Shown here: piece by piece, positions 9,988 through 47,774 of the stretch
How the letters are laid out: each line of letters starts with the position of its first letter
How positions within the stretch are numbered: the stretch's first letter is position 1
NCBI GenBank assembly: GCA_035528175.1
Contig: DATKZC010000007.1
Coordinates: 1 to 54,515, forward strand
Direction: 5' to 3'
Length of the DNA: 54,515 nucleotides
DNA from: Minisyncoccota bacterium
Lineage (GTDB): Bacteria; Patescibacteriota; Minisyncoccia; RBG-13-40-8-A
Translations under genes and position numbers: made by a program
Notes under the pieces: model-generated
What the model was told of the DNA's origin: nothing
What the model saw: only the letters and a program-made list of their open reading frames with translations
Databases searched by the model: none

Positions 9988-11727
9988 TTATTTTAAAACA
10001 GCCTTGACACGACGCACGCCGGCTGATGATGATTCTTCTTTTAAGATTTTAAAATGTCCGAGCTGGCTGGTTCTTTGCACGTGCGGGCCAGAGCATATTT
10101 CCAAACTGAAAGTTTGCCCCGAGGAATTCGAGGGGGCACTTCCAATTGAATAAACTTTCACTTTGTCTCCATATTTACTTTCAAAAACTCCCATTGCGCC
10201 CATTTTTCTTGCCTCGTCCAAAGGAACCTCACAACAATCAATAGGCAGATTCTTTTTGATTTGTTCATTAACTATATCTTCAATTTCTTTCAATTGTTCT
10301 TTGCTCACTTTTTCCGAGTGGGAAAAATCTAATCTTAATCTTTCCGCAGTAATGTTTGAACCTTTTTGGAAAACATGTTCGCCCAAAACTTTGCGTAATG
10401 CAGCCAAAAGTAAATGCGCAGCAGTATGAAGTTTTGTCACCTGTTCTGAATTATCCGCCAATCCTGATTTAAACTTCCCAGCAGTAGCTGTTCGGGATAA
10501 TTGTTGATGTTTGGCAAATTCCTTTTGAAATCCTTTTGTAATTTCCTCCTCATCGTATTTTATCCCCTTGTTTTTTAATTCTTCTAAATATAGTTCAAAA
10601 GGAATTCCATTGGTTGAAAAAAAATTAAAAGCTGTTCGCCCCGTAATATTCTTTTCTAGTTCTTCTAGTCCCCTTTTAAGTGTTTTAGCAAAAACATTTT
10701 CTTCTTGTATTAGTTGTTTAATAATAAAATCTTTGTTATTTTCCAGTTCTGGCCATTCGTTTTTCATTAAATCAATTACTAATTTTCCAATTTCGTAAAT
10801 AAATAATTTTCTAATTCCAATTTTTTGACCATGTCCAATTGCTCGCCTAATTAATCTTCTTGCCGTGTATCCTTGCTCAATATTTGACGGCACAACTCCA
10901 TCCGCAATAATAAAAACTGATGCACGAATATGGTCAGCAATAATTCTCTCAGATTTTTTATCATAATCAGTTGCCATTTTTTTGATTGCTTCAATAATTG
11001 ATTTTAATGGCTCAATTTCATAAACACTTTTTGTATTATTCCTGCCTGCCGGCAGGCAGGTTAAAATCGCCACAGTTCTTTCAACTCCCATACCCGTATC
11101 AACATTCTTTTGCTTTAATGGTTCATACTTGCCATCCGCGGTTTTATTATATTCCATAAAAACATCATTCCAGATTTCCACGCCATCATAAAACATTTCA
11201 GTGCACGGACCACAAGGACCTGTCTTTCCGGCTGGTCCCCAAAAATTATCTTCTTTATCTAAAAATTTGATTTTTTTAATTCCCAATGATTTCCAGATTT
11301 CAGCGGATTCCAAATCCCGCGGGATTTGTTCCGAGCCTGTCGAGGAACCAGCGAAAACTGAAACTGAAATTCTTTTTTTATCCAATCCTAATTCTTTAGT
11401 CAAAAACTCTAAACTCATCTCTATTGCTTCTTTTTTCCAATAACTTCCAAAACTCCAATTTCCCAGCATTTCAAAAAAAGTTAAGTGCCAGTCATCGCCA
11501 ACTTCATCAATATCGCTGGTTCTAATACATTTTTGCACATTAACTAATTTATCCCCTGCCGGATGCTTTTCGCCCAATAAATACGGCACTAATGGATGCA
11601 TTCCTGCGGTGGTAAATAAAACCGTAGGATCATTTTCCGGAATTAAAGAAGCAGAAGGAATAATTTTATGTCCCCTGCTCTGAAAAAATTTCAAATATTT
11701 TTCTTTTAAATCTTTTGTTGTAATCAT
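9988..11727 (-). CDS. alaS: Alanine--tRNA ligase, short form lacking the C-terminal C-Ala/DHHA1 domain
   Basis: It has the class II catalytic core (FTTAGM, GNWSFGDYWK-like), the editing-domain HTAAHLL...CSGPHV Zn motifs, and ends about 40 aa later. I prefer the ATG at 11727 (the track's TTG is at 11730). Confidence 0.92.
   Translation of the reverse strand: MITTKDLKEKYLKFFQSRGHKIIPSASLIPENDPTVLFTTAGMHPLVPYLLGEKHPAGDKLVNVQKCIRTSDIDEVGDDWHLTFFEMLGNWSFGSYWKKEAIEMSLEFLTKELGLDKKRISVSVFAGSSTGSEQIPRDLESAEIWKSLGIKKIKFLDKEDNFWGPAGKTGPCGPCTEMFYDGVEIWNDVFMEYNKTADGKYEPLKQKNVDTGMGVERTVAILTCLPAGRNNTKSVYEIEPLKSIIEAIKKMATDYDKKSERIIADHIRASVFIIADGVVPSNIEQGYTARRLIRRAIGHGQKIGIRKLFIYEIGKLVIDLMKNEWPELENNKDFIIKQLIQEENVFAKTLKRGLEELEKNITGRTAFNFFSTNGIPFELYLEELKNKGIKYDEEEITKGFQKEFAKHQQLSRTATAGKFKSGLADNSEQVTKLHTAAHLLLAALRKVLGEHVFQKGSNITAERLRLDFSHSEKVSKEQLKEIEDIVNEQIKKNLPIDCCEVPLDEARKMGAMGVFESKYGDKVKVYSIGSAPSNSSGQTFSLEICSGPHVQRTSQLGHFKILKEESSSAGVRRVKAVLK
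10111..10137 (-). repeat. GC-rich element copy (PSxSSGQ family) in-frame in alaS, encoding APSNSSGQT
   Basis: The coding strand GCCCCCTCGAATTCCTCGGGGCAAAC aligns with copies in dnaK, the CsaA-like gene, cysS and the spacer at 38603. Confidence 0.6.
11041..11060. repeat. 20-nt perfect palindrome CCTGCCTGCCGGCAGGCAGG in-frame in alaS (CLPAGR)
   Basis: Self-complementary, 80% GC, and identical to 12687-12706 in mnmA. Confidence 0.8.
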
Positions 11728-12219: not shown

Positions 12220-13245
12220 TTAAAGAATCACTCCTCCACCCATGAGTTCACCGTCTAAGTAAAACACCGCACTTTGACCAGAGGTAATTGCGCGCTGCGG
12301 TTTTTTAAAAACAATTTTACTGCCTTTAATTATTGCATCCGCCATTTTTGCCATGGAACGAATTTTAACTTTACATTTTCCTGTATATGGTTTTCCACTA
12401 ATCCAATTCATATTTTTCACAGCCATTCCTTTTTGCAATAAATCTTTTTTTGATTTGGATACAATTAAAGTATTTTTTTTATAGTCCTTTTTCACTACAT
12501 AATACGGCCCCCCGCTTAATCCTATGTTTTTTCTCTGTCCGATTGTATAAAAAATTAAGCCCTTATGCTCACCAATTTTTTTATTATCCATCGTAATAAT
12601 CGGGTCTGCCACGCAACTGCTGGGACGGGGTAAATCAAAACAAATATCCTGACTTTCTTTTTTATTGAATACTGGTAATTTGAATCCCTGCCTGCCGGCA
12701 GGCAGGTTTTTTGCCAATCCCCTAACTTGTTCTTTGGTATAATCGCCAAGCGGAAATAAAATCTTTGTTAATTGTTTTTGTTTTAAGGTCCAAAGAAAAT
12801 AACTTTGGTCTTTTTTTATGTCTTTAGCAATAAATAATTTTCCGTCTTTAATTCTGGCGTAATGGCCGGTTGCGATAAAATCAGCTTTTAATTGCACCAT
12901 TTTTTCTAATAAAAACCTGAATTTAATATATTTATTGCATTCTACGCACGGATTTGGCGTATTGCCTGATTCATATTCTTTAAGGGTATAATCAATCACC
13001 TGTTTTTTGAATTCTTTGCGCACATCTAAAACTTTAAAATCAATTTTTAGTTTTTTGGCGACAATCTTCGCATCCTGCGGATTACTATTCTTATGCATTA
13101 ACATAAAAATACCGACGACATTATATCCTCCGCCCAAGGCAGACAAGTCGTTTTTTAACATGGCAGCAGCAACAGAACTATCTACTCCGCCACTCATTGC
13201 AATAATTACCCTGCCTCGCCGGCAGGCGGCCCTTTTATTATCCAT
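12220..13245 (-). CDS. mnmA: tRNA-specific 2-thiouridylase
   Basis: 341 aa. It has the PP-loop IAMSGGVDSS, the catalytic CNK.IKF region and DQSYFL. Confidence 0.92.
   Translation of the reverse strand: MDNKRAACRRGRVIIAMSGGVDSSVAAAMLKNDLSALGGGYNVVGIFMLMHKNSNPQDAKIVAKKLKIDFKVLDVRKEFKKQVIDYTLKEYESGNTPNPCVECNKYIKFRFLLEKMVQLKADFIATGHYARIKDGKLFIAKDIKKDQSYFLWTLKQKQLTKILFPLGDYTKEQVRGLAKNLPAGRQGFKLPVFNKKESQDICFDLPRPSSCVADPIITMDNKKIGEHKGLIFYTIGQRKNIGLSGGPYYVVKKDYKKNTLIVSKSKKDLLQKGMAVKNMNWISGKPYTGKCKVKIRSMAKMADAIIKGSKIVFKKPQRAITSGQSAVFYLDGELMGGGVIL
12687..12706. repeat. 20-nt perfect palindrome CCTGCCTGCCGGCAGGCAGG in-frame in mnmA (LPAGRQ)
   Basis: 20/20 identical to the alaS copy but read in a different frame. 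Confidence 0.8.
13210..13230. repeat. Degenerate copy of the palindrome (CCTGCCTCGCCGGCAGGCGGC) at the mnmA 5' end, encoding AACRRGR
   Basis: It differs from the 20-mer by one inserted C and one lost A. It lies just upstream of the PP-loop codons. Confidence 0.6.
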
Positions 13246-13702: not shown

Positions 13703-14826
13703 AATCCCTCCTCTTTTAATTTCTCAATTAATTCTTTTTCTTTTTTAGATAATTTTTGCGGGATTTTGATTTTGATACGCACATACTGGTCGCCTCGGCC
13801 ATAAGAATTCAATCTTGGCATACCTTTTCCTGATAATTTAAACATTTTCCCGCCTTCTGTGCCTGCAGGAATTTTTAATTTTAAATCCCCTTCTAATGTT
13901 GAAATATCAATCTTATCTCCTAATACTGCCTGCGAAAATTTTATTTCTGCATCACAATAAATATCGTCTCTTTTCCTGATGAAAATCTTATGCGGCTTTA
14001 AACGTATGCGCACGTATAAATCTCCTGATATTCCGCCTTTTTTCGCTACCTCGCCTTTTCCTGGAAATTTTATTGTCTGTCCATTATCAACTCCTACCGG
14101 TAAATCAACTTTAATTGTTTCAATTTCACTTACCCTTCCTGTGCCCTTACATTCTTTACATTCTTTTTCATGCAGTTCGCCTTCGCCAGAACACTTCGGA
14201 CAAGTTATAACCTGCGAAAATGTTCCGAAAAAAGTTCTTTTTGTCTGTTGAACTTGGCCATTGCCCCCGCATTCAGGACATTTTTTCTTTCCACTTCCAG
14301 GCTCTCCGCCTGTTCCTTTGCAGTGTTTACAAATAATATATTTTTTTAAATTAATTTCTTTTTCAATGCCTGTAAATGCCTCTTCTAAAGTAATTTCCAT
14401 ATCAACCACAATATCTTTGCCGTGTTCCTTTCTCGTTCTTCTGCCTCCTCCACCTCCATTAAAAAATTGGCTGAAAATATCAGAAAAACTTCCGCCTCCA
14501 AAAATATCTCCTAAATCCCAGCCCGAGGATGGTCCGCCTTGGGCGGAAAATTCTCCTCCTTCTTGATAATTCCTGAAAATATCCTCCCAACTCATACCCG
14601 CACCTCCAAAACCAGCTTGATCAAAGCTTGACCCGAACTGGTCGTATTGCTGACGCTTTTCATCATTGGATAAAACTGAATATGCTTCATTAACTTCTTT
14701 AAACTTCTTTTCATCCCCACCTTTATCCGGATGATGTTGATGAGCAAGCTTTCTGAAAGCTTGCTTTATCTCTTCTTTATTCGCATCTTTATTTACTCCA
14801 AGTGTCTTGTAATAATCTTTACTCAT
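13699..14826 (-). CDS. dnaJ: Molecular chaperone DnaJ
   Basis: J domain with HPD (KLAHQHHPDKGG), a G/F-rich region and four CxxCxGxG zinc-finger repeats. Confidence 0.95.
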   Translation of the reverse strand: MSKDYYKTLGVNKDANKEEIKQAFRKLAHQHHPDKGGDEKKFKEVNEAYSVLSNDEKRQQYDQFGSSFDQAGFGGAGMSWEDIFRNYQEGGEFSAQGGPSSGWDLGDIFGGGSFSDIFSQFFNGGGGGRRTRKEHGKDIVVDMEITLEEAFTGIEKEINLKKYIICKHCKGTGGEPGSGKKKCPECGGNGQVQQTKRTFFGTFSQVITCPKCSGEGELHEKECKECKGTGRVSEIETIKVDLPVGVDNGQTIKFPGKGEVAKKGGISGDLYVRIRLKPHKIFIRKRDDIYCDAEIKFSQAVLGDKIDISTLEGDLKLKIPAGTEGGKMFKLSGKGMPRLNSYGRGDQYVRIKIKIPQKLSKKEKELIEKLKEEGL

Positions 14827-15600: not shown

Positions 15601-17520
15601 TTATTTCTTTTCTGTTTCCCCTTCGGGTATATCCGGATTCTTATCATCTTTTTTCTGCGCGTCTTGCTGGGCTTTATAGAGTTCTGTCCCAACTTTCTGA
15701 ATTGCTTGAGATAATTCATCAGATGCTTTCTTGATTTCACTCACGTAGGAATCTTTTCCGCCCGAGGCGGACTCGCCTTGGGCGAGTATTTTTTTCAGCG
15801 CCTCAATTTTTTCTTCAATTTCTTTTTTGTTCTCTTCTTTTATTTTAGCACCAAATTCTTTTATTGTCCTTTCGGTTGTAAAAACCAAAGTATCGGCGGT
15901 ATTTTTAACATCAACAATTTCTTTTTTCTTCTTGTCTTCTTCGGCGTGGATTTCCGCATCTTTTTTCATTTTTTCAATATCTTCTTTTGACAAACCCGAA
16001 GATGCTTCAATCCTGATTGATTGGATTTTATTTGTGGCTTTATCTTTTGCCGTAACGCTTAAAATCCCATTCGCATCAAGGTCAAAAGTAACCTCAATTT
16101 GGGGAATGCCTTTTGGAGCCGGTGGAATGCCATCCAAAATAAATCTGCCCAATGTTTTATTGTCAGCAGCCATTGGTCTTTCTCCCTGTAGAACATTAAT
16201 TTCAACTGATGGCTGATTATTCGCAGCAGTAGAAAATACTTGCGTTTTAGCAGCAGGAATAGTTGTATTTTTTTCAACCAGTTTCGTCATCACTCCGCCA
16301 AGAGTTTCAATTCCTAATGATAAAGGAGTGATATCCAGAAGCAAAACATCTTTCACATCGCCCTGGAAAATTCCTGCCTGTACAGCAGCGCCCGCTGCAA
16401 CCACTTCGTCAGGATTAATATCTTTATGCGGCTCCTTTCCGAATAATTCCTTTACTTTTTGCTGTATTAACGGCATCCTGGTCTGGCCTCCTACTAAAAC
16501 TACTTCATCAATATCGGACATTTTAAATCCTGAATCATCAACAACTTGTTTAGTGATTTTTGTCGCTTTATCAATATACTCTCCAACTAAATCTTCAAGT
16601 TTTGCGCGGCTAAATTTAATATTTAAGTGTCTTGGCCCATCTGCTCCGCTGGTAATAAAGGGAATATTTACTTCTGTTTCCATTGCCGATGATAATTCGT
16701 GTTTTGCTTTTTCTGCTGAATCTTTTAGTCGTTGCAAAGCCAGCTGGTCTTTTGATAAATCAACTCCTTCCTGTTTTTTAAATTCATCAACCAGCCAATG
16801 CATAATAATCTGGTCAAAATCATCGCCTCCTAAATGCGTATCTCCGCCTGTTGCTTTCACTTCAACTGTATCTTTGGAAACTTCAAGCACTGAAACATCA
16901 AATGTTCCTCCGCCGAAATCAAATACCACAATCTGCTCATCCTTTTTCTTATTTAAGCCATAAGCCAAAGCAGCTGCAGTCGGTTCATTGATAATTCTTT
17001 TCACTTTTAAGCCGGCGATTTCTCCTGCATCTTTGGTTGCTTTTCTCTGCGAATCGTTAAAATAAGCAGGAACAGTGATTACTGCTTCTTCTATTTTTTC
17101 TCCTAAACGGTCTTCGGCATCTTGTTTAAGTTTCTGTAAAATCATTGCGGAAATTTCAGCTGGGCCATACCATTTAGCTTGCCCTGAGCTTGTCGAAGGG
17201 TCACCCAGCTTGATTTCCACCGCTCCTTCTTTTGATTCTCTGATTTCATAAGGTAAAAGTTTTTTATCGCGCTGAACTTCGGCATCAGAATATCTCCTGC
17301 CGATTAATCGCTTTACCGAATAAATTGTGTTTTTGGAATTAGTTACTGCCTGTCTTTTTGCTAAGAGACCAACAAGCCGTTCATTGGCTTTTGAAACAGC
17401 AACAACAGAAGGAGTTGTTCTGTTTCCTTCTTTATTTTCAATTATTCTCGGCTCGCCTGCTTCAACAATCGCCATTGCCGAATTAGTCGTGCCTAAATCA
17501 ATACCTAATATCTTTGACAT
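15601..17520 (-). CDS. dnaK: Molecular chaperone DnaK (Hsp70)
   Basis: 639 aa with canonical [18 protein letters not shown] and [10 protein letters not shown] motifs. Confidence 0.97.
15754..15783 (-). repeat. GC-rich double hairpin in-frame in the dnaK C-terminal lid region, encoding [10 protein letters not shown]
   Basis: Coding strand reads CTCGCCCAAGGCGAG + TCCGCCTCGGGCGGA, two adjacent short hairpins. Its composition resembles the CGCCAAGG..CGGCG family. Confidence 0.5.
17176..17202 (-). repeat. GC-rich element copy (PSxSSGQ family) in-frame in the dnaK N-terminal domain, encoding DPSTSSGQA
   Basis: The coding strand GACCCTTCGACAAGCTCAGGGCAAGC aligns with the alaS, CsaA-like and cysS copies. 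Confidence 0.6.
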
Positions 17521-17544: not shown

Positions 17545-18096
17545 TTATTTACTTATTTTAACTTTACTTGCTCTTATAACCTTTCCATTTAATTTATACC
17601 CTTTTTGAATCTCTTTGGCGATAATGTTGGTTTCAGTCCCTCGACCAAGCTCGGGACTAATTTCCACTTCGCCTACGGCTTCGTGGAAATTAGGATCAAA
17701 TTTTTCTCCAACAGCATCAATTTCTTCAACTCCGCTGGATTTTAGAATATTTTTAAATTGATTGTAAATCTGTTTAATTTCTTCTTGCCCGAGACCCTCT
17801 GCGTCTTTATGATTATTTTCAAAATGCTTCATTGCCAATTCAAAACTATCCAAAACCGGCAAGATTTCATAAATCAAGCCCTCATTAGCAAACTTAAAAA
17901 TCTCGGAAATTTTCGCTTCCTGTTCTTTTTTATAATTTATCAAATCAGCTTTTGCTCTCTGCCACCCAGCCAAATATTCCGCGCGTTCCTGCTCGGTTTT
18001 TTTCAACTGCTCTTTAATCTTTTTAACCTTATCTTCTACTTTTTCAGAGCCGTCTTCGCTTACATATTCAATTTTTTCCGTCTTTTCTTTACTCAT
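17545..18096 (-). CDS. grpE: Nucleotide exchange factor GrpE
   Basis: 183 aa with a coiled-coil N-terminus. It carries R..AD..N.RKR-like (RAKADLINYKK) and LPVLD.FE.A motifs and sits between hrcA and dnaK. Confidence 0.93.
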   Translation of the reverse strand: MSKEKTEKIEYVSEDGSEKVEDKVKKIKEQLKKTEQERAEYLAGWQRAKADLINYKKEQEAKISEIFKFANEGLIYEILPVLDSFELAMKHFENNHKDAEGLGQEEIKQIYNQFKNILKSSGVEEIDAVGEKFDPNFHEAVGEVEISPELGRGTETNIIAKEIQKGYKLNGKVIRASKVKISK

Positions 18097-18107
18097 AATA
18101 TATTCAT

Positions 18108-18133
18108 CCGCCTACGCCAAGGCTTCGGCGAGA
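18108..18133. repeat. GC-rich hairpin element (CGCCAAGGCTTCGGCG core) filling the hrcA-grpE spacer
   Basis: CCGCCTACGCCAAGGCTTCGGCGAGA, with a 6-bp stem CGCCAA/TTCGGCG-type hairpin at 18115-18130. It aligns with the in-gene copies in recR and trpS. Confidence 0.65.
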
Positions 18134-18583
18134 CTAGGAGAAATCCTCCAACATTTCTTTTAACTTATTTATTAATTCTATATTATAATCGTATCTCATT
18201 CTCGTCGGACTGATTAAACCGATGATTTCGCGCTTTTTATGCAATGTTTTATGCTCTGTGATAATCAAGGAATAACTGTGAGTTCTAATCATCTCAACTC
18301 CAACTTGTCCGCATAAATGATTGAACTGCTTTTCAAATATATCCTTAGACGGCTGACCAATAAAAAACCGATACGCTTTTTCTGTAGGAATTCTTCCCGC
18401 AGACGTGTGCGGCTGAATTAAATAACCCGAGCTTTCCATTTCCGTCATTTCATTTCTTAAGGTAGCAGAACTTAACCCGAGATCGCGGGCTAATGCTTTT
18501 GAACTTACTGGCTTGGGATTATCAACATATTCCTTAACAATAAGCTCCAAAATTTTCTGCTGCCTTTCCGTCATTTTATCCAT
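18134..18583 (-). CDS. hrcA: Heat-inducible repressor HrcA, miniaturised (149 aa versus about 340 aa typical)
   Basis: It has an N-terminal winged helix (RQ..IL..IV..Y.....PVSS..LA.......SSATLRNEM..ME..GYL..PHTSAGRIPT.KAYR) and the conserved C-terminal IG.I.PTRM.Y motif. The central roughly 190 aa are absent. Confidence 0.85.
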   Translation of the reverse strand: MDKMTERQQKILELIVKEYVDNPKPVSSKALARDLGLSSATLRNEMTEMESSGYLIQPHTSAGRIPTEKAYRFFIGQPSKDIFEKQFNHLCGQVGVEMIRTHSYSLIITEHKTLHKKREIIGLISPTRMRYDYNIELINKLKEMLEDFS

Positions 18584-18590
18584 TATATCA

Positions 18591-18619
18591 ATAATAGTAA
18601 ATTAGCACTCCCTTGTCAA
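18591..18619 (-). promoter_or_regulatory. hrcA operon promoter (leaderless)
   Basis: Minus strand reads TTGACA (18614-18619)-17 nt-TATTAT (18591-18596), then 7 nt to the ATG at 18583. The -35 box lies inside the CIRCE spacer. Confidence 0.65.
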
Positions 18620-18628
18620 GAGTGCTAA
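18602..18628. promoter_or_regulatory. CIRCE operator (HrcA binding site), perfect consensus
   Basis: TTAGCACTC-ccttgtcaa-GAGTGCTAA matches TTAGCACTC-N9-GAGTGCTAA exactly. Confidence 0.9.
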
Positions 18629-18677
18629 TCAAAAACTCGTGCCTGCCCCGCAACTGCGGGGTCAAGAGAGTGCTAAT
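18615..18677. repeat. GC hairpin insert flanked by a direct duplication of the CIRCE right arm
   Basis: GTCAAGAGTGCTAAT (18615-18629) and GTCAAGAGAGTGCTAAT (18661-18677) flank a 31-nt segment. That segment contains the hairpin CCCCGC-aact-GCGGGG (18646-18661). Confidence 0.6.
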
Positions 18678-20779: not shown

Positions 20780-22164
20780 GATTATTCAACACTTTAACCA
20801 GAAAAAAGGAAATTTTTAAGCCGATTAAAAAGGGCCGTATAAGAATCTATACTTGTGGTCCGACTGTTTATTCATACCAGCATATCGGCAATTTAAGGTC
20901 TTACATCTTCTCCGATATTCTGAAAAGGGTTTTCTTTTACAATAAATATAAAGTCAAACAAGTGATGAACATAACCGATGTCGGACATCTAACCTCTGAT
21001 GCTGACGAGGGCGAAGACAAAATAGAAAAAGCTGCCAAGTGCGAAAATAAAAAAGCAGAAGATATTGCAAATTATTATTGGAATATATTCAGAAGGGATT
21101 TTAAAAAACTTAATATTCTTGAGCCGGATATTTGGTGCAAAGCAACCAAACACATCAAGGAGCAAATTGAACTTATAAAAAAGCTTGAGAAAAAAGGATA
21201 CACTTATCGCACCTCTGATGGAATTTATTTTAACACTGCAAAATTCAAGAATTACGGCGAAATTGCCCAATTAAAAAGACAAAAATTACAAGCTGGAAAG
21301 AGAATTGATTTAGGTGAAAAGAAGAACATTACTGACTTCGCTTTATGGAAGTTCTCGCCTTCGACCCTTCGACCCGGCTCAGGGCCTAAACGGCAGCAGG
21401 AATGGGATTCGCCTTGGGGAATTGGATTTCCTGGATGGCATATTGAATGCTCGGCAATGTCGATGAAGTACCTGGGAGAGCATTTTGATATTCACACTGG
21501 CGGAATCGACCACATTCCCGTACATCATACTAATGAAATTGCTCAATCCGAGGCCGTAACCGGAAAAAAATTCGTGAATTTTTGGATGCATGGGGAATTT
21601 CTAAACTTTAAAGGCAAAAAGGTTTCAAAAAGCACAGGCGGACTCTACACAATTTCGGATTTAGAGGAAAAGGGATTTAATCCCCTTGCTTTCCGCTATC
21701 TGACTTTTATCACCCATTACCGCGACCCGTTGAATTTTTCTTTAGAATCCTTGCAAAGCGCGCAAGATGCTTATTTGAGATTGAAAAACTTAGTTCAAGA
21801 GAATAAAGATAAAAGAATTAAAAAAGAATATTTGAAAGAATTTCACAAAGCCATTAATGATGACTTAAATATGCCCAAAGCGCTTAGTATCATCTGGAAG
21901 ATATTAAGAGATAAGAAACCCGCCCGCAACGCCAGCAAGTTGTCTTGTGTGGTGGGCGAGATGGACGAAGTTCTAGGCTTAGATTTACTAAAAAAAGAAG
22001 AATTCGAAATCCCGGAACAAATCAAAAAACTTCTTCTTGAACGCGAACAAGCAAGAAAAAATAAAAATTGGAAAGAATCAGACCAACTCCGCGATAAAAT
22101 AAAATCCCTTGGATATTTAATTGAAGACATGTTGAGTGGACAAAAAATAAAGAAAATAATATAA
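20770..22164 (+). CDS. cysS: Cysteine--tRNA ligase
   Basis: HIGH-type motif (YQHIGNLRS), the WHIECSAM zinc site and KMSKS-type KVSKS. I prefer the ATG at 20770 ([14 protein letters not shown]...), which overlaps the corA stop by 10 nt. The track starts at 20704. Confidence 0.93.
21358..21390 (+). repeat. Extended GC-rich element in-frame in cysS, encoding [11 protein letters not shown]
   Basis: CCTTCGACCCTTCGACCCGGCTCAGGGCCTAAA has the same CCTTCGA...CTCAGGGC ends as the PSxSSGQ family, with a longer centre. Confidence 0.55.
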
Positions 22165-22194: not shown

Positions 22195-22310
22195 ATCCGA
22201 ATGATACGAACATTTATCCGAATCAACGAATTATTTGTAGATTCGCATATCAATTTGCCTGCCCGACATCGCCTTTGGCTTAGTCAAGAGGCGGGCGGGT
22301 AGATTCGAAT
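22195..22310. repeat. Composite repeat: an AT-rich TCGNAT word array interrupted by a GC-rich inverted-repeat element
   Basis: Words ATCCGAAT, GATACGAA, CAACGAAT and TTTGTAGATTCG are shared with 41246-41705 and 49542-49626. The GC segment at 22246-22298 is flanked by the direct repeat GTAGATTCG (22237-22245 and 22299-22307). Confidence 0.6.
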
Positions 22311-22327: not shown

Positions 22328-23659
22328 ATGAAAAACAAAAAAGAATTTCTTAGTGTATTAATAAGCGTTTTGATCTGCGTTTTTGTCTTTGCCGTAATTG
22401 TTTATGCGACGACAACGATAGGGAATAATGTGACAGTAGGCGGTACCTTAACTTCTACAGGATTAGAGTTTACTCTAGTAGATCCTCCTACTGCTTCCAC
22501 TGCGTCGTTAGTTTCAACAAGTTCAGGCAATATAAATAACGGAACGCATTCTTATAGTGTGACGTTTGTAACTGCGACAGGCGAAACTTCTCTGGGGGCA
22601 GGATCCAATCAAATTACAGTAGACGATTCTCATAAACAAGTAGAACTTTCAAATATTCCTATTGGGTCAAGTAGTGTTACTCAGCGAAAACTTTACAGAA
22701 ACTATTATTTTCTTGCGACTTTGGATAATAATACGGATACCACTTATACAGATAATATAAGCAATGCTAGTCTCGGGACAGATAGTGCCTACCTTCGAGT
22801 AAACACAACAGGAGGAAAAATTACAGTAGACGGAAGTTCAGCAGGCATATTGACTGCAGGTAGCACAATTGCTTTAGGCGGAGGAGCGCTTAATGCTCTT
22901 ACAACTGGTTATGCCAATATAGCAATTGGATTAAATACATTGATCCAAAATACGACTGGTTATGATAATCTGGCATTTGGCACACACGCTCTTTCTAAAA
23001 ATGTTTCTGGCCGTAGCAATATTGCTATGGGGGCGGCGGCTCTTTATGTTCTTGGAATGGGATCTCCTGGAAACTTCAATGTCGCTGTTGGAGAAAATGC
23101 GTTGTCCTGGTATTTTGGCGGAAGCAACAATGTTGCTGTTGGTTATGGCGCTCTGATGGGAAATTATAACACAAGCAGCGGAAACGTGGGAATTGGTTAT
23201 AATGCCGGATATTACGAAACTGGTTCCAATAAATTATTTATAGATAATGCAACTCGAGCTTCTGAAGCAGATGCGCGATTAAAAGCATTAATCTATGGTA
23301 TATTTGCCGCAGCCACAGCCAATCAATATTTGACAATAAATGGACAATTACAAGTATCCGGAACTGGAACAAGTTATGTAATGGGTAATTTTGGTATCGG
23401 AGACACAGTTCCTGCTTATACTCTTTCTGTTGACGGCACTGCTTCTGTTTCAGATACTATGTATGTAAAAGATGTTTACTTTAGTGGGGTGGTTTCTGCT
23501 TCGGATACTGGTGGTATATTAATTGGAGAGGGAATAACAATAAAAGCTGGTTTGGCTTCTCCGAGTGGAGCTTGTGGAACAGCGGGAAATTTATACACAG
23601 AAAAAACAACAGGAACATTAAGTGTTTGTGGTGTAGATGGTATCTGGAATCCAAAATAA
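22328..23659 (+). CDS. Secreted surface fibre protein with YadA-head/tail-fibre-like repeats
   Basis: 443 aa. The signal/anchor is LISVLICVFVFAVIVYA. Periodic N.A[IVF]G..AL...T.G repeats are present (NIAIGLNTL, NLAFGTHAL, NIAMGAAAL, NVAVGENAL, NVAVGYGAL, NVGIGYNAG). The C-terminal region resembles those of phage tail-fibre proteins. Confidence 0.6.
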   Translation: MKNKKEFLSVLISVLICVFVFAVIVYATTTIGNNVTVGGTLTSTGLEFTLVDPPTASTASLVSTSSGNINNGTHSYSVTFVTATGETSLGAGSNQITVDDSHKQVELSNIPIGSSSVTQRKLYRNYYFLATLDNNTDTTYTDNISNASLGTDSAYLRVNTTGGKITVDGSSAGILTAGSTIALGGGALNALTTGYANIAIGLNTLIQNTTGYDNLAFGTHALSKNVSGRSNIAMGAAALYVLGMGSPGNFNVAVGENALSWYFGGSNNVAVGYGALMGNYNTSSGNVGIGYNAGYYETGSNKLFIDNATRASEADARLKALIYGIFAAATANQYLTINGQLQVSGTGTSYVMGNFGIGDTVPAYTLSVDGTASVSDTMYVKDVYFSGVVSASDTGGILIGEGITIKAGLASPSGACGTAGNLYTEKTTGTLSVCGVDGIWNPK

Positions 23660-25106: not shown

Positions 25107-25730
25107 ATGCTGCCACGACCAATTCAAAATTTAATTGATGAATTTGCCAAACTGCCGTCTGTTGGCCCAAGACAGGCCGCCAGATTTGTTTTCCATCTAC
25201 TTGACCAACCCAAAGAAGAAATAGAAAAATTCGCCAAGAAATTATTCATCCTGAAAAAAGTAAAACAATGCGCTTTCTGTAATCGCTTTACAGAACTTCC
25301 GACTCTCTGCGAAATCTGCAAAAATACCCATCGTGACAGAACCACAGTTTGTATTGTGGAAAAAGATACCGATATAGAATCAATCGAAAAGACAAAAAGA
25401 TATAATGGCATTTATTATGTAATCGGCGCAGAAGATGAAAAACTGCAATTAGGGCGATTAAAAAATTTGATTGAAAGGATAAAAAAAGCCCGCCTTCGCC
25501 AAGGATTCGGCGAGGCAAGCAATAAAGACCTGAAAGAAATAATCATTGCAACCGACGCCACAACCGAAGGCGAAACCATTGCCTTATACTCAACGCGACA
25601 TTTGGAGGAATTAAAAAAAAGTTATCCTCAATTAAGGATAACTCGTCTTGGCCGCGGATTATCTACTGGCTCGGAACTGGAATACATGGACGAGGATACT
25701 TTAGCAAATGCCCTGCTTGGCAGAAAGTGA
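25107..25730 (+). CDS. recR: Recombination protein RecR
   Basis: 207 aa. HhH N-terminus (LP.VGP..A.R), a C4 zinc finger (CAFCNR...CEIC) and a Toprim domain (IIATDATTEGE). Confidence 0.93.
   Translation: MLPRPIQNLIDEFAKLPSVGPRQAARFVFHLLDQPKEEIEKFAKKLFILKKVKQCAFCNRFTELPTLCEICKNTHRDRTTVCIVEKDTDIESIEKTKRYNGIYYVIGAEDEKLQLGRLKNLIERIKKARLRQGFGEASNKDLKEIIIATDATTEGETIALYSTRHLEELKKSYPQLRITRLGRGLSTGSELEYMDEDTLANALLGRK
25488..25520 (+). repeat. GC-rich hairpin element in-frame in recR, encoding ARLRQGFGEAS
   Basis: GCCCGCCTTCGCCAAGGATTCGGCGAGGCAAGC aligns base-for-base with the trpS and hrcA-grpE spacer copies. Confidence 0.7.
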
Positions 25731-33114: not shown

Positions 33115-33164
33115 CCCTGTTAAATTTCGCCTACGGCGAACCCGCTTCGCGGGATTTAACGGGG
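33115..33164 (-). repeat. Perfectly nested three-way GC-rich structure 14 nt upstream of the tasA-like start codon
   Basis: Outer 11-bp stem CCCTGTTAAAT/ATTTAACGGGG encloses the hairpins TTCGCC-tac-GGCGAA and CCCGC-ttc-GCGGG, with no unpaired junction bases. Confidence 0.6.
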
Positions 33165-38571: not shown

Positions 38572-38600
38572 ATCTTATTCCACTTAATTACCATTGTCAA
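38572..38600 (-). promoter_or_regulatory. Putative dcw (mraZ) promoter
   Basis: Minus strand reads TTGACA-17 nt-TAAGAT, with a roughly 60-nt leader carrying a GGGGGA SD. Confidence 0.55.
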
Positions 38601-38602
38601 CC

Positions 38603-38632
38603 CCCCGACTACGCTCGGGGCAAGTCCCTTGC
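38603..38632. repeat. Intergenic GC-rich element copy (two hairpins) of the ...CTCGGGGCAAG family
   Basis: CCCCGA-ctacgc-TCGGGG followed by GCAAG-tcc-CTTGC. The string GACTACGCTCGGGGCAAG aligns with the alaS and dnaK in-gene copies and with GACTCCGCTCGGGATAA in ftsK. Confidence 0.6.
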
Positions 38633-38639
38633 GAAAACT

Positions 38640-46766: not shown

Positions 46767-47774
46767 ATGCGAATATTCAGCGGAATACAACCAACTGGAG
46801 AATTACATATCGGAAATTATTTAGCGGTGATTAAACAATGGGTTAATTTACAAAAAAAAGCAAAATGCGTTTTTTCTGTTGTTGATTTGCATGCAATTAC
46901 CATTCTATATAATCCAAAGCAAATGCAGAAAAATATCCTTTCCGTGACAATGGACTATTTGGCAGCAGGAATAGATTTTAAGAAAAATATTATTTTTGTC
47001 CAATCGCATATCAAGGAACATTCCGAATTGGCATGGCTCTTGGAAACCATCACTCCAATGGGCGAGTTGCAGAGAATGACCCAATTTAAAGAAAAATCAG
47101 AACAAAATAAAACGAATATTAACGCAGGGCTTTTTTCTTATCCTGTGTTGATGGCAGCTGATATTTTATTATACAAGGCTGACACTGTGCCGGTTGGCGA
47201 AGACCAACAACAGCACGTGGAATTAAGCAGAACTTTGGCAAGAAAATTCAACAACAAATTTGGGAAAATCTTTCCCGAACCAAAAACGCAACTCCCTGAA
47301 TTCGGCGCAAGAATAATGTCGCTAGTTGACCCGTCGCAAAAAATGAGTAAATCAATTCCGCAGGGATGCGTTTTCCTTTCCGATAAGCCGGAAATAATCA
47401 GGCAGAAAATAAGAGCTGCGGTCACGGACTCCGACAAAGAAGTGAAATTCGACGAAAAAAACAAACCAGCAATTTCTAATCTGCTTACTATTTATCACCT
47501 TTTCTCTAATAAATCCATCTCTGATATTGAAAAGAGATATCAAAACAAAGGCCCCGCCTTCGCCGAGGCTTCGGCGGGCAAGTATGCGGAATTTAAAAAA
47601 GATTTAGCGGAAATAGTGGTTAATGGATTAAAAAAATTCCAAGAAAAAAGAAAACAGCTTGAAAAAAATCCCCAGCAGATTAAAAAAATTCTTGCTGACG
47701 GAGCAAGAAAAGCGCAAAAAATCGCAACCCAAACAATGAAAGAAATTAAGGTAAAAATGGGGTTAATTCCTTAA
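46767..47774 (+). CDS. trpS: Tryptophan--tRNA ligase
   Basis: 335 aa. GIQPTGELHIGNY (HIGH region), GEDQ.QH.EL.R and KMSKS are canonical. Confidence 0.95.
   Translation: MRIFSGIQPTGELHIGNYLAVIKQWVNLQKKAKCVFSVVDLHAITILYNPKQMQKNILSVTMDYLAAGIDFKKNIIFVQSHIKEHSELAWLLETITPMGELQRMTQFKEKSEQNKTNINAGLFSYPVLMAADILLYKADTVPVGEDQQQHVELSRTLARKFNNKFGKIFPEPKTQLPEFGARIMSLVDPSQKMSKSIPQGCVFLSDKPEIIRQKIRAAVTDSDKEVKFDEKNKPAISNLLTIYHLFSNKSISDIEKRYQNKGPAFAEASAGKYAEFKKDLAEIVVNGLKKFQEKRKQLEKNPQQIKKILADGARKAQKIATQTMKEIKVKMGLIP
47550..47582 (+). repeat. GC-rich hairpin element in-frame in trpS, encoding (G)PAFAEASAGK
   Basis: GGCCCCGCCTTCGCCGAGGCTTCGGCGGGCAAG contains the hairpin CGCCGA-ggct-TCGGCG. It is the same element as in recR but read in another frame. 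Confidence 0.7.

Follow-up and report, generated by a model that had tools for sequence, protein, structure and literature searches.

The 54,515-nucleotide (nt) stretch of DNA analysed here (the window), contig DATKZC010000007.1 of a Minisyncoccota bacterium, contains three copies of a GC-rich element of approximately 30 nt, which we name E1 (cross-genome consensus CCCGCCTTCGCCAAGGCTTCGGCGGGCAAGCC). One copy is located in frame within recR, one in frame within trpS, and the third at the junction of an hrcA-like gene and grpE. E1 is most probably a selfish insertion, similar in nature to the repetitive extragenic palindromes (REP) of other bacteria. More specifically, it is probably a miniature selfish palindrome of 30-32 nt, GC-rich and comparable to REP and to the Rickettsia palindromic elements (RPE), which would be gained and lost at the level of the DNA, with incidental effects on protein and RNA. 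The GC content of the 54.5-kb window is 36%. The nearest relatives of the window proteins are in Patescibacteria, of the candidate phyla radiation (CPR), and those that have been named are Candidatus Portnoybacteria. The identity to Candidatus Portnoybacteria RBG_13_40_8 is 77% for RecR and 69% for TrpRS.

The copy in recR occupies positions 25489-25519 (+ strand, CCCGCCTTCGCCAAGGATTCGGCGAGGCAAG; profile and consensus search) of a gene (25107-25730, +) that matches the Pfam families RecR_HhH, Toprim_4 and RecR_C. The net insertion into this gene is 30 nt (25488-25517) and encodes ARLRQGFGEA, residues 128-137 of RecR. The copy in trpS is at 47553-47582 (+, CCCGCCTTCGCCGAGGCTTCGGCGGGCAAG), within a gene at 46767-47774 (+; Pfam tRNA-synt_1b, E = 1.4e-78), and encodes PAFAEASAGK, residues 263-272 of TrpRS. 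The third copy, at 18107-18137 (+, TCCGCCTACGCCAAGGCTTCGGCGAGACTAG), separates grpE (17545-18096) from the short hrcA-like gene (18134-18583). These two genes are on the minus strand (17545-18583 overall; Pfam GrpE and HrcA_DNA-bdg), near dnaK (15601-17520), such that E1 is antisense relative to their transcription. The 3' tail of this copy furnishes the stop codon of hrcA (CTA at 18134-18136, TAG on the minus strand). The density of E1 in the window is three copies in 54.5 kb, two of the three being intragenic, and the distances between copies are 7 kb and 22 kb, unlike the regular spacing of the repeats in CRISPR arrays. A CRISPR repeat was rejected for E1, as there is no regular spacing in the window and the tandem arrays found elsewhere have no spacers.

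The initial annotation, made from the letters of the window, had proposed that recR, trpS and the hrcA-grpE spacer hold one common element, and our consensus, core and profile searches agree on this. The 30-nt consensus, with up to three mismatches allowed, matched 25490-25519 and 18108-18137, with no match in 100 shuffles. The trpS copy has a 1-nt indel compared to this consensus and was caught by the 16-nt core CGCCRAGGMTTCGGCG, which is found exactly at the three E1 sites and nowhere else in the window (0.36 matches expected at up to three mismatches). An E1 profile was built solely from copies of other genomes and then run on the window. It found the same three sites, all on the + strand (E = 3e-10, 8e-9 and 8e-9), the next-best match having E = 2.3. 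The similarity persists, then, under formal statistical scoring, and the search of the whole window for the consensus adds no fourth site. The window copies are 1, 2 and 5 edits from the cross-phylum consensus, that in trpS differing from it by a single base, and 3-6 edits from one another. A CGCC...GGCG inverted repeat is present in all three. As the initial annotation had stated, the two coding copies are translated in two different frames of E1 (RIKK-ARLRQGFGEA-SNKD in RecR and NKG-PAFAEASAGK-YAEF in TrpRS); hence what they share is not the peptide.

Comparison of the sequences identifies all three window copies as insertions, the site being cleanly empty in the nearest orthologous loci. 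Of the 120 best-matching RecR homologs, 101 have an empty site (RIKK-S-NKDLKEIIIATDAT), and five of these share 88-90% identity with RecR of the window. An E1-type insert is present in eight (for example SRLRQGSGGQAK) and a different insert, of the PSTSSGQ type, is found at the same place in 11. The site in TrpRS is empty (KG-YAEFK) in 108 of 120 homologs and is occupied by E1 (PAFAKASAGK/R, LAFAEASAGR) in four, while shorter hairpins (PACRQGR, PALPAGR, PAQAGR) take up the same codon in the other eight. The initial annotation would have been refuted if orthologs generally contained the residues in question; they are generally absent from orthologs of both proteins. The same is seen in the DNA. 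The trpS gene of locus L001 (87% identical) has the empty site AAAGGA-TACGCA, and that of L002 has a different 21-nt hairpin, CCTGCCTGCCGGCAAGGTAGG, at the site of E1. A 90%-identical ortholog of recR (L005) reads ATTAAAAAAAGCAATAAGG where the window has 30 extra bases. The recR site of L006 reads CCCGCCTACGCCAAGGCTCCGGCGGGCAAGCC, which is nearer to the spacer copy of the window than to its recR copy. The hrcA and grpE genes overlap by 8 nt in both L003 and L006 (ATGAGTAA), while in the window they are separated by a block of about 45 nt with E1 (18100-18144), which is absent in the alignment from both of these loci. Through this block the C-terminus of HrcA is changed from EDYE to EDFS, with a new stop codon. 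The junctions at recR and trpS display microhomology of the AAG(C) type only, which does not support a fixed target-site duplication. A scan of metagenomes for the trpS site with a degenerate flank pattern returned 11 loci, with flanks that could be read in 10. In nine of these, KG is followed directly by Y, and in one 6 extra nt intervene; E1 was found in none of the 10, all of which are distant (68-77% nt identity), and no recent polymorphism was caught.

The element had initially been taken for a feature of this one genome, a view that did not hold, as the family is found across many phyla. An exact scan with CCGCCTWCGCCRAGGMTYCGGCGRG of one genome per GTDB species gave at least 120 loci, at most about one of which is expected by chance, as estimated from base composition. 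The scan pattern required CCGCC at the head, and the CGCC head is therefore fixed in the collected copies. The matches listed include, within the CPR, Kaiser-, Gottesman-, Komeili-, Taga-, Nomura-, Staskawicz-, Ames- and Uhrbacteria, as well as Saccharibacteria, and, in other phyla, Acidobacteriota (many Vicinamibacterales), Verrucomicrobiota/Opitutales, Planctomycetota, Alphaproteobacteria, Bacteroidota, Myxococcota, Chloroflexota and others. The isolate genomes of Bradyrhizobium sp. NAS80.1, Niastella soli and Reyranella soli have E1, as do 14 stretches of viral contigs from IMG/VR. Among annotated plasmids and the genomes of cultured phages, matches were only partial and at the level of chance (the best with 29 aligned bases at 93% identity), and no named annotation was obtained. 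Only 19 further copies were detected in the sequence of the collected loci. The borders of the element are sharp: in 121 copies from other genomes, conservation extends from -1 to +30 and the flanks are random, which gives a unit of 30-32 nt.

Within AT-rich genomes, E1 is found inside long open reading frames (ORFs) in either orientation and in each of the six frames, with PAFAKASAG, RLRQGFGG, PPSPRLRRA, PAEALAKAG, CPPKPWRRR and ARRSLGEGG as the resulting peptides. None of the six frames of the majority consensus contains a stop codon, and the CTAC variant, which is carried by the spacer copy of the window, has TAG in one reverse frame. Ten E1-bearing ORFs were checked against Pfam. Clear domain matches were obtained for nine (GT4 glycosyltransferase, PriA, Lnt, PheT, HsdS, RadA, Fpg and two more RecR proteins) and none for the tenth (L054). 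The frame of E1 in RecR is b in the window, L006 and Amesbacteria, and a in Uhrbacteria; the inserts of the Amesbacterium and Uhrbacterium proteins are in the same helix-to-Toprim loop, at slightly different residues. Such differences in frame and residue within one permissive loop point to independent hits. The P3 hairpin of the RNase P RNA is E1 in two Desulfuromonadales (Geobacter-like) genomes (L015, 2586-2977; L079, 5963-6354), with CCCGCC/GGCGGG as its stem and 8 extra nt in the loop compared to the Rfam model. E1 abuts or separates tRNA genes in several genomes, forms tandem arrays without spacers at four loci, and in GC-rich genomes occurs in many of its copies as inverted doublets (six loci). 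Non-coding copies directly follow stop codons in four phage loci.

These observations bear on the explanation that the similarity is due to chance, codon usage, an ancestral linker peptide or an artefact of assembly. Peptides rich in Ala, Gly and Arg and encoded by GC-rich DNA are common low-complexity linkers, and most of the matches come from metagenome-assembled genomes. Yet the shuffles give zero, the coding copies are in different frames, and there are orthologs without the insert. The inserts moreover preserve the reading frame and are present in independent assemblies and in isolates. The shuffle, frame, ortholog and isolate evidence refutes this explanation, to which we assign a negligible probability.

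Where the coding copies are situated in the proteins was evaluated with AlphaFold2 models. Residues 128-137 of RecR are in a low-confidence segment (predicted local distance difference test, pLDDT, below 50 at 130-139) that connects the helix at 111-133 to the Toprim strand at 144-148, in a model that is moderate overall (mean pLDDT 68.5). Residues 263-272 of TrpRS are in a loop between the helices at 251-256 and 272-299, with pLDDT below 50 at 266-269. Both window inserts are thus predicted to be in loops of low pLDDT, which fits a filter for tolerance.

The predicted fold of E1 has a 6-bp outer stem, CCCGCC/GGCGGG, with -14.2 kcal/mol for the consensus (z = -1.4 compared to shuffles) and z = -0.5 to -2.5 for the window copies. 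The hairpin proposed in the initial annotation is real as sequence, since the inverted repeat is there in each window copy, and is not thermodynamically exceptional, as it folds only modestly better than shuffles. The loop positions are as invariant as the stem positions across phyla (121 copies). Covariation was not seen: the four variable positions vary independently, and the 19 further copies contain one compensatory pair (CTCGCC/GGCGAG, in L061) versus several mismatches. A search of Rfam 15 gave no credible match on E1 at E<=10, and two tRNAs alone reach the gathering score in the window. No T-tract follows any window copy, and the terminator scan at the spacer copy calls only the palindrome of the CIRCE (controlling inverted repeat of chaperone expression) type. 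An intrinsic terminator was rejected, given the missing T-tract and the location of two of the copies inside ORFs. The modest folding energy, the invariant loop, the lack of covariation and of a match in Rfam, and the free orientation in genes speak against a conserved RNA structure as what is selected.

The same data allow an appraisal of E1 as a selected cis-acting element. It would be either a DNA site bound by a conserved protein (as REPs are by gyrase or integration host factor) or an RNA hairpin with a role in mRNA stability or processing or in the pausing of translation, and it would be kept as useful, for example by uncoupling hrcA from grpE. The conservation of the loop bases to the level of the stem bases suggests that E1 is recognized by its sequence. 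In four trpS orthologs the host gene is less conserved than the insert, the high GC of E1 is maintained in an AT-rich genome, certain non-coding copies come right after stop codons (the four phage loci and hrcA of the window), and the stem is that of the P3 helix of a Geobacter RNase P RNA. However, E1 is present in genes in both orientations and six frames, so that no single RNA strand is conserved; most orthologs fare well without the insert; and unrelated hairpin families replace E1 at the same codon. Covariation and an Rfam match are lacking, and the spacer copy has neither a T-tract nor a terminator call. We regard such a selected element as improbable, and its retention for a useful effect as improbable to the same degree.

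In support of a selfish palindrome, the occupancy of both protein sites turns over. By Fitch parsimony on neighbor-joining trees (120 orthologs each; the trees are rough), the RecR site has changed state at least 17 times and the TrpRS site at least 10 times, and the same codon is hit by different families of elements among orthologs. Direct repeats of 6-8 nt, variable in length, flank approximately 10% of the copies (12 observed versus 2.7 expected). A Pfam scan of 28 window ORFs gave no transposase-like domain. When 4,494 ORFs from 134 loci were clustered all against all, no gene apart from related phage genes recurred as a neighbor of E1. We tentatively propose a route of movement that depends on the host, with template switching for gain and slippage for loss. 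In this scheme, an existing copy of E1 would serve as the source of a new one, through template switching mediated by microhomology in the course of replication or repair, and E1 would be lost precisely through slippage between short flanking repeats, with the host machinery alone sufficing. In its favor are the excess and variable length of the flanking repeats, the tandem arrays, the AAG(C) microhomology at the recR junction, and the failure to find a transposase in the scanned window ORFs or a recurrent neighbor in the 134 loci. Copies would survive only where they are harmless in the compact, AT-rich CPR genome. Such places would be flexible surface loops, where inserts of a multiple of three keep the frame (the helix-to-Toprim linker of RecR, the inter-helix loop of TrpRS), intercistronic junctions and, in other organisms, the loops of hairpins in structural RNAs. 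Horizontal transfer would spread E1 between lineages, and phages may be its carriers.

Several points weigh against a selfish palindrome that moves in this manner. The E1 insert is 83-93% identical among four divergent trpS genes, compared to 66-78% for the rest of the gene, and in the pair of the window and L203 the insert matches at 28 of 30 positions at a background of 66% (binomial estimate, approximately 5e-4). A trpS insert that is more conserved than its flanks implies recent independent insertion, gene conversion or selection at the nucleotide level. If the DNA were neutral, it would be difficult to account for a 30-mer that is nearly identical in different phyla, and a sequence of 70-77% GC is expected to decay under AT-biased mutation in a genome of 36% GC. 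The flanking repeats could reflect insertion into pre-existing short tandem repeats. The repeated use of the same codon in Portnoybacteria-like orthologs suggests some preference for the site, which does not obviously follow from template switching. Near-identical genomes that differ by the insert alone were not found, the closest genomes with an empty site being 10-13% diverged, and movement of E1 was not observed.

Full-text searches of the literature with the E1 sequence, its reverse complement and six derived peptides gave no match, and no description of E1 was found in the literature on palindromic or in-frame repeats of CPR/Patescibacteria. The closest readable published description of such repeats appears to be that of Di Nocera et al. 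2013 (PMC3733652), whose CGTC type E1 resembles in layout. These authors describe REPs tagged by GTAG or CGTC, with abundant intragenic REPs in Opitutus terrae and Rickettsia conorii, those of the latter being RPE-4 and RPE-6, which they equate with CGTC REPs (PMC3733652). Intragenic REPs are often in genes for DNA repair and tRNA synthetases, and the CGTC REPs lack a dedicated transposase (PMC3733652). Like E1, the CGTC REPs and REPINs are GC-rich imperfect palindromes of 20-40 nt that occur as singletons, inverted doublets and clusters. REPs are sometimes found in genes, can provide the stop codon of a neighboring ORF, and have a layout of head, stem, loop and tail, all of which applies to E1. 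E1 departs from them in the CGCC head of the collected copies (CGTC or GTAG in REPs), in its length of only 30 nt, in the intragenic location of two of three window copies and of many copies in CPR genomes, in its low density and in that no REP-associated tyrosine transposase (RAYT) was seen in the 28 window ORFs scanned. Its sequence is common to many phyla and to viral contigs, whereas REP families are usually lineage-specific. As to the end tetranucleotide of E1, the head is CGCC in the consensus, at a position that the scan pattern had fixed, CGTC is seen in the variants of two loci, and the reverse complement of GTAG (the CTAC variant) is present in 19% of copies, in an internal and not a terminal position.

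This comparison raises the alternative that E1 is a classical REP moved in trans by a REP-associated tyrosine transposase (HUH/Y1, RAYT-like or of the type of the insertion sequences IS200/IS605) acting on the single-stranded hairpin. The copies in CPR would then have been made by an enzyme of this kind whose gene is at another place in the genome or was brought in by a mobile element. The layout does resemble that of the CGTC REPs (PMC3733652), with a head of 4 nt, some 8 positions of stem (TTCGCCAA/TCGGCGRG), a GGCT loop and a short tail. The head, CGCC in E1, is CGTC in the variants of L060 and L027, and the doublets in GC-rich genomes are REPIN-like; the reported intragenic REPs in DNA-repair and tRNA-synthetase genes also agree with this alternative (PMC3733652). 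Against it, no Y1 transposase was found in the 28 scanned window ORFs and no recurrent neighbor in the 134 loci. The existence of CGTC REPs without a dedicated transposase (PMC3733652) likewise speaks against it. The collected heads are CGCC, though the scan pattern itself required CCGCC. REP families normally stay within a species or genus and do not extend across phyla, and the flanking repeats of E1 vary in length, unlike HUH insertion beside a fixed target. We consider a transposase acting in trans unlikely, and an origin of the CPR copies from such an enzyme elsewhere in the genome or on a mobile element likewise unlikely.

E1 was also compared to other known repeats. MITEs, miniature transposable elements with inverted repeats, are, like E1, small, non-autonomous and capable of intragenic location. 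They are, however, generally at least 50-100 nt long, with the terminal inverted repeats of a parent insertion sequence and a target duplication of fixed length, and E1 has none of these. A MITE was rejected, as flanking repeats accompany only about 10% of the copies, with a variable 6-8 nt, and the whole unit is one hairpin. The GC clusters of yeast mitochondria are palindromic, 30-50 nt long, GC-rich in an AT-rich genome, polymorphic among strains and at times in frame (var1), with short target repeats; they differ from E1 in belonging to an organelle genome and in having unrelated sequences. The RPEs of Ogata et al. 2000 are reportedly selfish palindromic repeats found in frame in housekeeping genes of a small AT-rich genome. 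As with E1, a peptide is added in frame where the protein permits it, and some orthologs have the insert and others do not. RPE-1 is set apart by length, at 100-150 nt, and is confined to Rickettsia, while E1 is 30-32 nt, GC-rich and cross-phylum. The small dispersed repeats (SDR) of cyanobacteria are reported to be mobile-looking, 21-27 nt long and in some cases hairpins, to have no encoded function and to be tied to tandem heptamers. SDR are not known to have been described outside cyanobacteria and have other sequences than E1. The likeness lies in the short tandem repeats of the heptamer type that flank E1 and its companions (see below) in other genomes. The work on SDR in Nostoc and further cyanobacteria (Elhai et al. 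2008, Genome Res 18:1484) is cited in PMC3116915.

E1 is not the only GC-rich insert of the window. The initial annotation had listed the tail of dnaK as a looser relative of E1. This insert, at 15757-15786 (-), is missed by the family profile and is a separate type of GC-rich insertion, a 30-nt double hairpin (CTCGCCCAAGGCGAGTCCGCCTCGGGCGGA; fold z = -4.1) that is an insertion compared to L006 and L003. Elsewhere in dnaK, at 17176-17199 (-), a 24-nt insert (CCTTCGACAAGCTCAGGGCAAGCT) encodes PSTSSGQA and belongs to a second family, E2 (CCTTCGACAAGCTCAGGGCAAG). E2 occupies the RecR hot spot in 11 orthologs (PSTSSGQ), is found in 16 stretches of viral contigs of 32-70% GC, and has the ends CCTTCG.CAAG...GGCAAG in common with E1. 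A relative of E2 is the 27-nt GC-rich insert of cysS (21358-21384, +), which encodes PSTLRPGSG and contains a stretch of 9 nt in duplicate (CTTCGACCC). Another short sequence, the perfect palindrome CCTGCCTGCCGGCAGGCAGG of 20 nt (palindrome A), is found in alaS at 11041-11060 (TCLPAGR) and in mnmA at 12687-12706 (NLPAGRQG), with a degenerate copy near the mnmA start, at the N-terminus (approximately 13208-13234). Palindrome A recurs in viral contigs that differ widely in GC (35 stretches), often between direct repeats of 7-14 nt, and at three loci it seems to be inside phage tRNA genes (variable loop or D-loop). Tandem repeats of 6-8 nt were seen around E1 at seven loci, around palindrome A at five and around E2 at two, as in (CCTGTTC)n, (GCCTAAA)n, (CATGAAG)n and (GAATCAC)n, even inside recR of Uhrbacteria. 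Compared to L003, the window has two further inserts, an 18-nt one in mnmA (13130-13147, CTTGTCTGCCTTGGGCGG) and GGPSS in the G/F region of DnaJ (14514-14548), which share the motif CGCCCAAGGCG with the insert of the dnaK tail.

It is possible, if somewhat doubtful, that E1 and its companions CCTGCCTGCCGGCAGGCAGG and CCTTCGACAAGCTCAGGGCAAG together constitute "nano" mobile elements of 20-32 nt that circulate between phyla, including CPR, and phages. No more probable is the accompanying notion that they are copied by the ubiquitous host machinery of replication or repair, with no dedicated transposase involved, and enter genes for proteins, tRNA and RNase P RNA without destroying them.

The second relative of E1 in the initial annotation, at 33115-33164, is also missed by the E1 profile. 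It is an intergenic pair of small GC-rich hairpins (TTCGCCTACGGCGAA and CCCGCTTCGCGGG) downstream of a minus-strand gene; a pair of this kind is found as well at 38595-38635 (CCCCGACTACGCTCGGGG...). These pairs, which are not E1, may resemble terminators or REPs. The CIRCE-type operator (TTAGCACTC-N9-GAGTGCTAA; 18600-18630, -) is located upstream of the hrcA-like gene and overlaps a good sigma-70-like promoter (TTGACA-17-TATTAT). HrcA is 149 residues long in the window, 160 in L003 and 230 in L006. GrpE of L003 and L006 contains segments of the GC type (PPTGGQAGE, PDDEQAGK) where the window protein differs, which suggests that this position is another insertion-prone loop. Lastly, a 443-residue ORF (22328-23659, +) with no Pfam match is found between cysS and dnaB, two genes that are adjacent in the syntenic relatives L003, L004 and L006. 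It is preceded by a GC-rich inverted repeat (22256-22300) and may be an inserted gene.

For the annotation and phylogenomics of CPR, these results mean that short segments rich in Ala, Gly, Arg and Ser, such as PAFAKASAGK, RLRQGFGGQA, PSTSSGQA and LPAGRQ, are inserts derived from repeats and not lineage-specific features of the proteins; alignments, as well as gene calls in each of the six frames, can be led astray by them. The linker of RecR and the KG-Y loop of TrpRS are hit repeatedly and provide a natural map of the sites in essential proteins that tolerate insertion. E1 is near-identical from Patescibacteria to Acidobacteriota, Verrucomicrobiota, Bradyrhizobium and phage contigs, with no obvious vehicle or enzyme, and the question that it poses is how so short a DNA spreads and persists against AT-biased mutation. 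Were the "nano" elements to prove real, no mobile DNA known would be smaller or more widely distributed, and they would repeatedly supply essential proteins with new loops.

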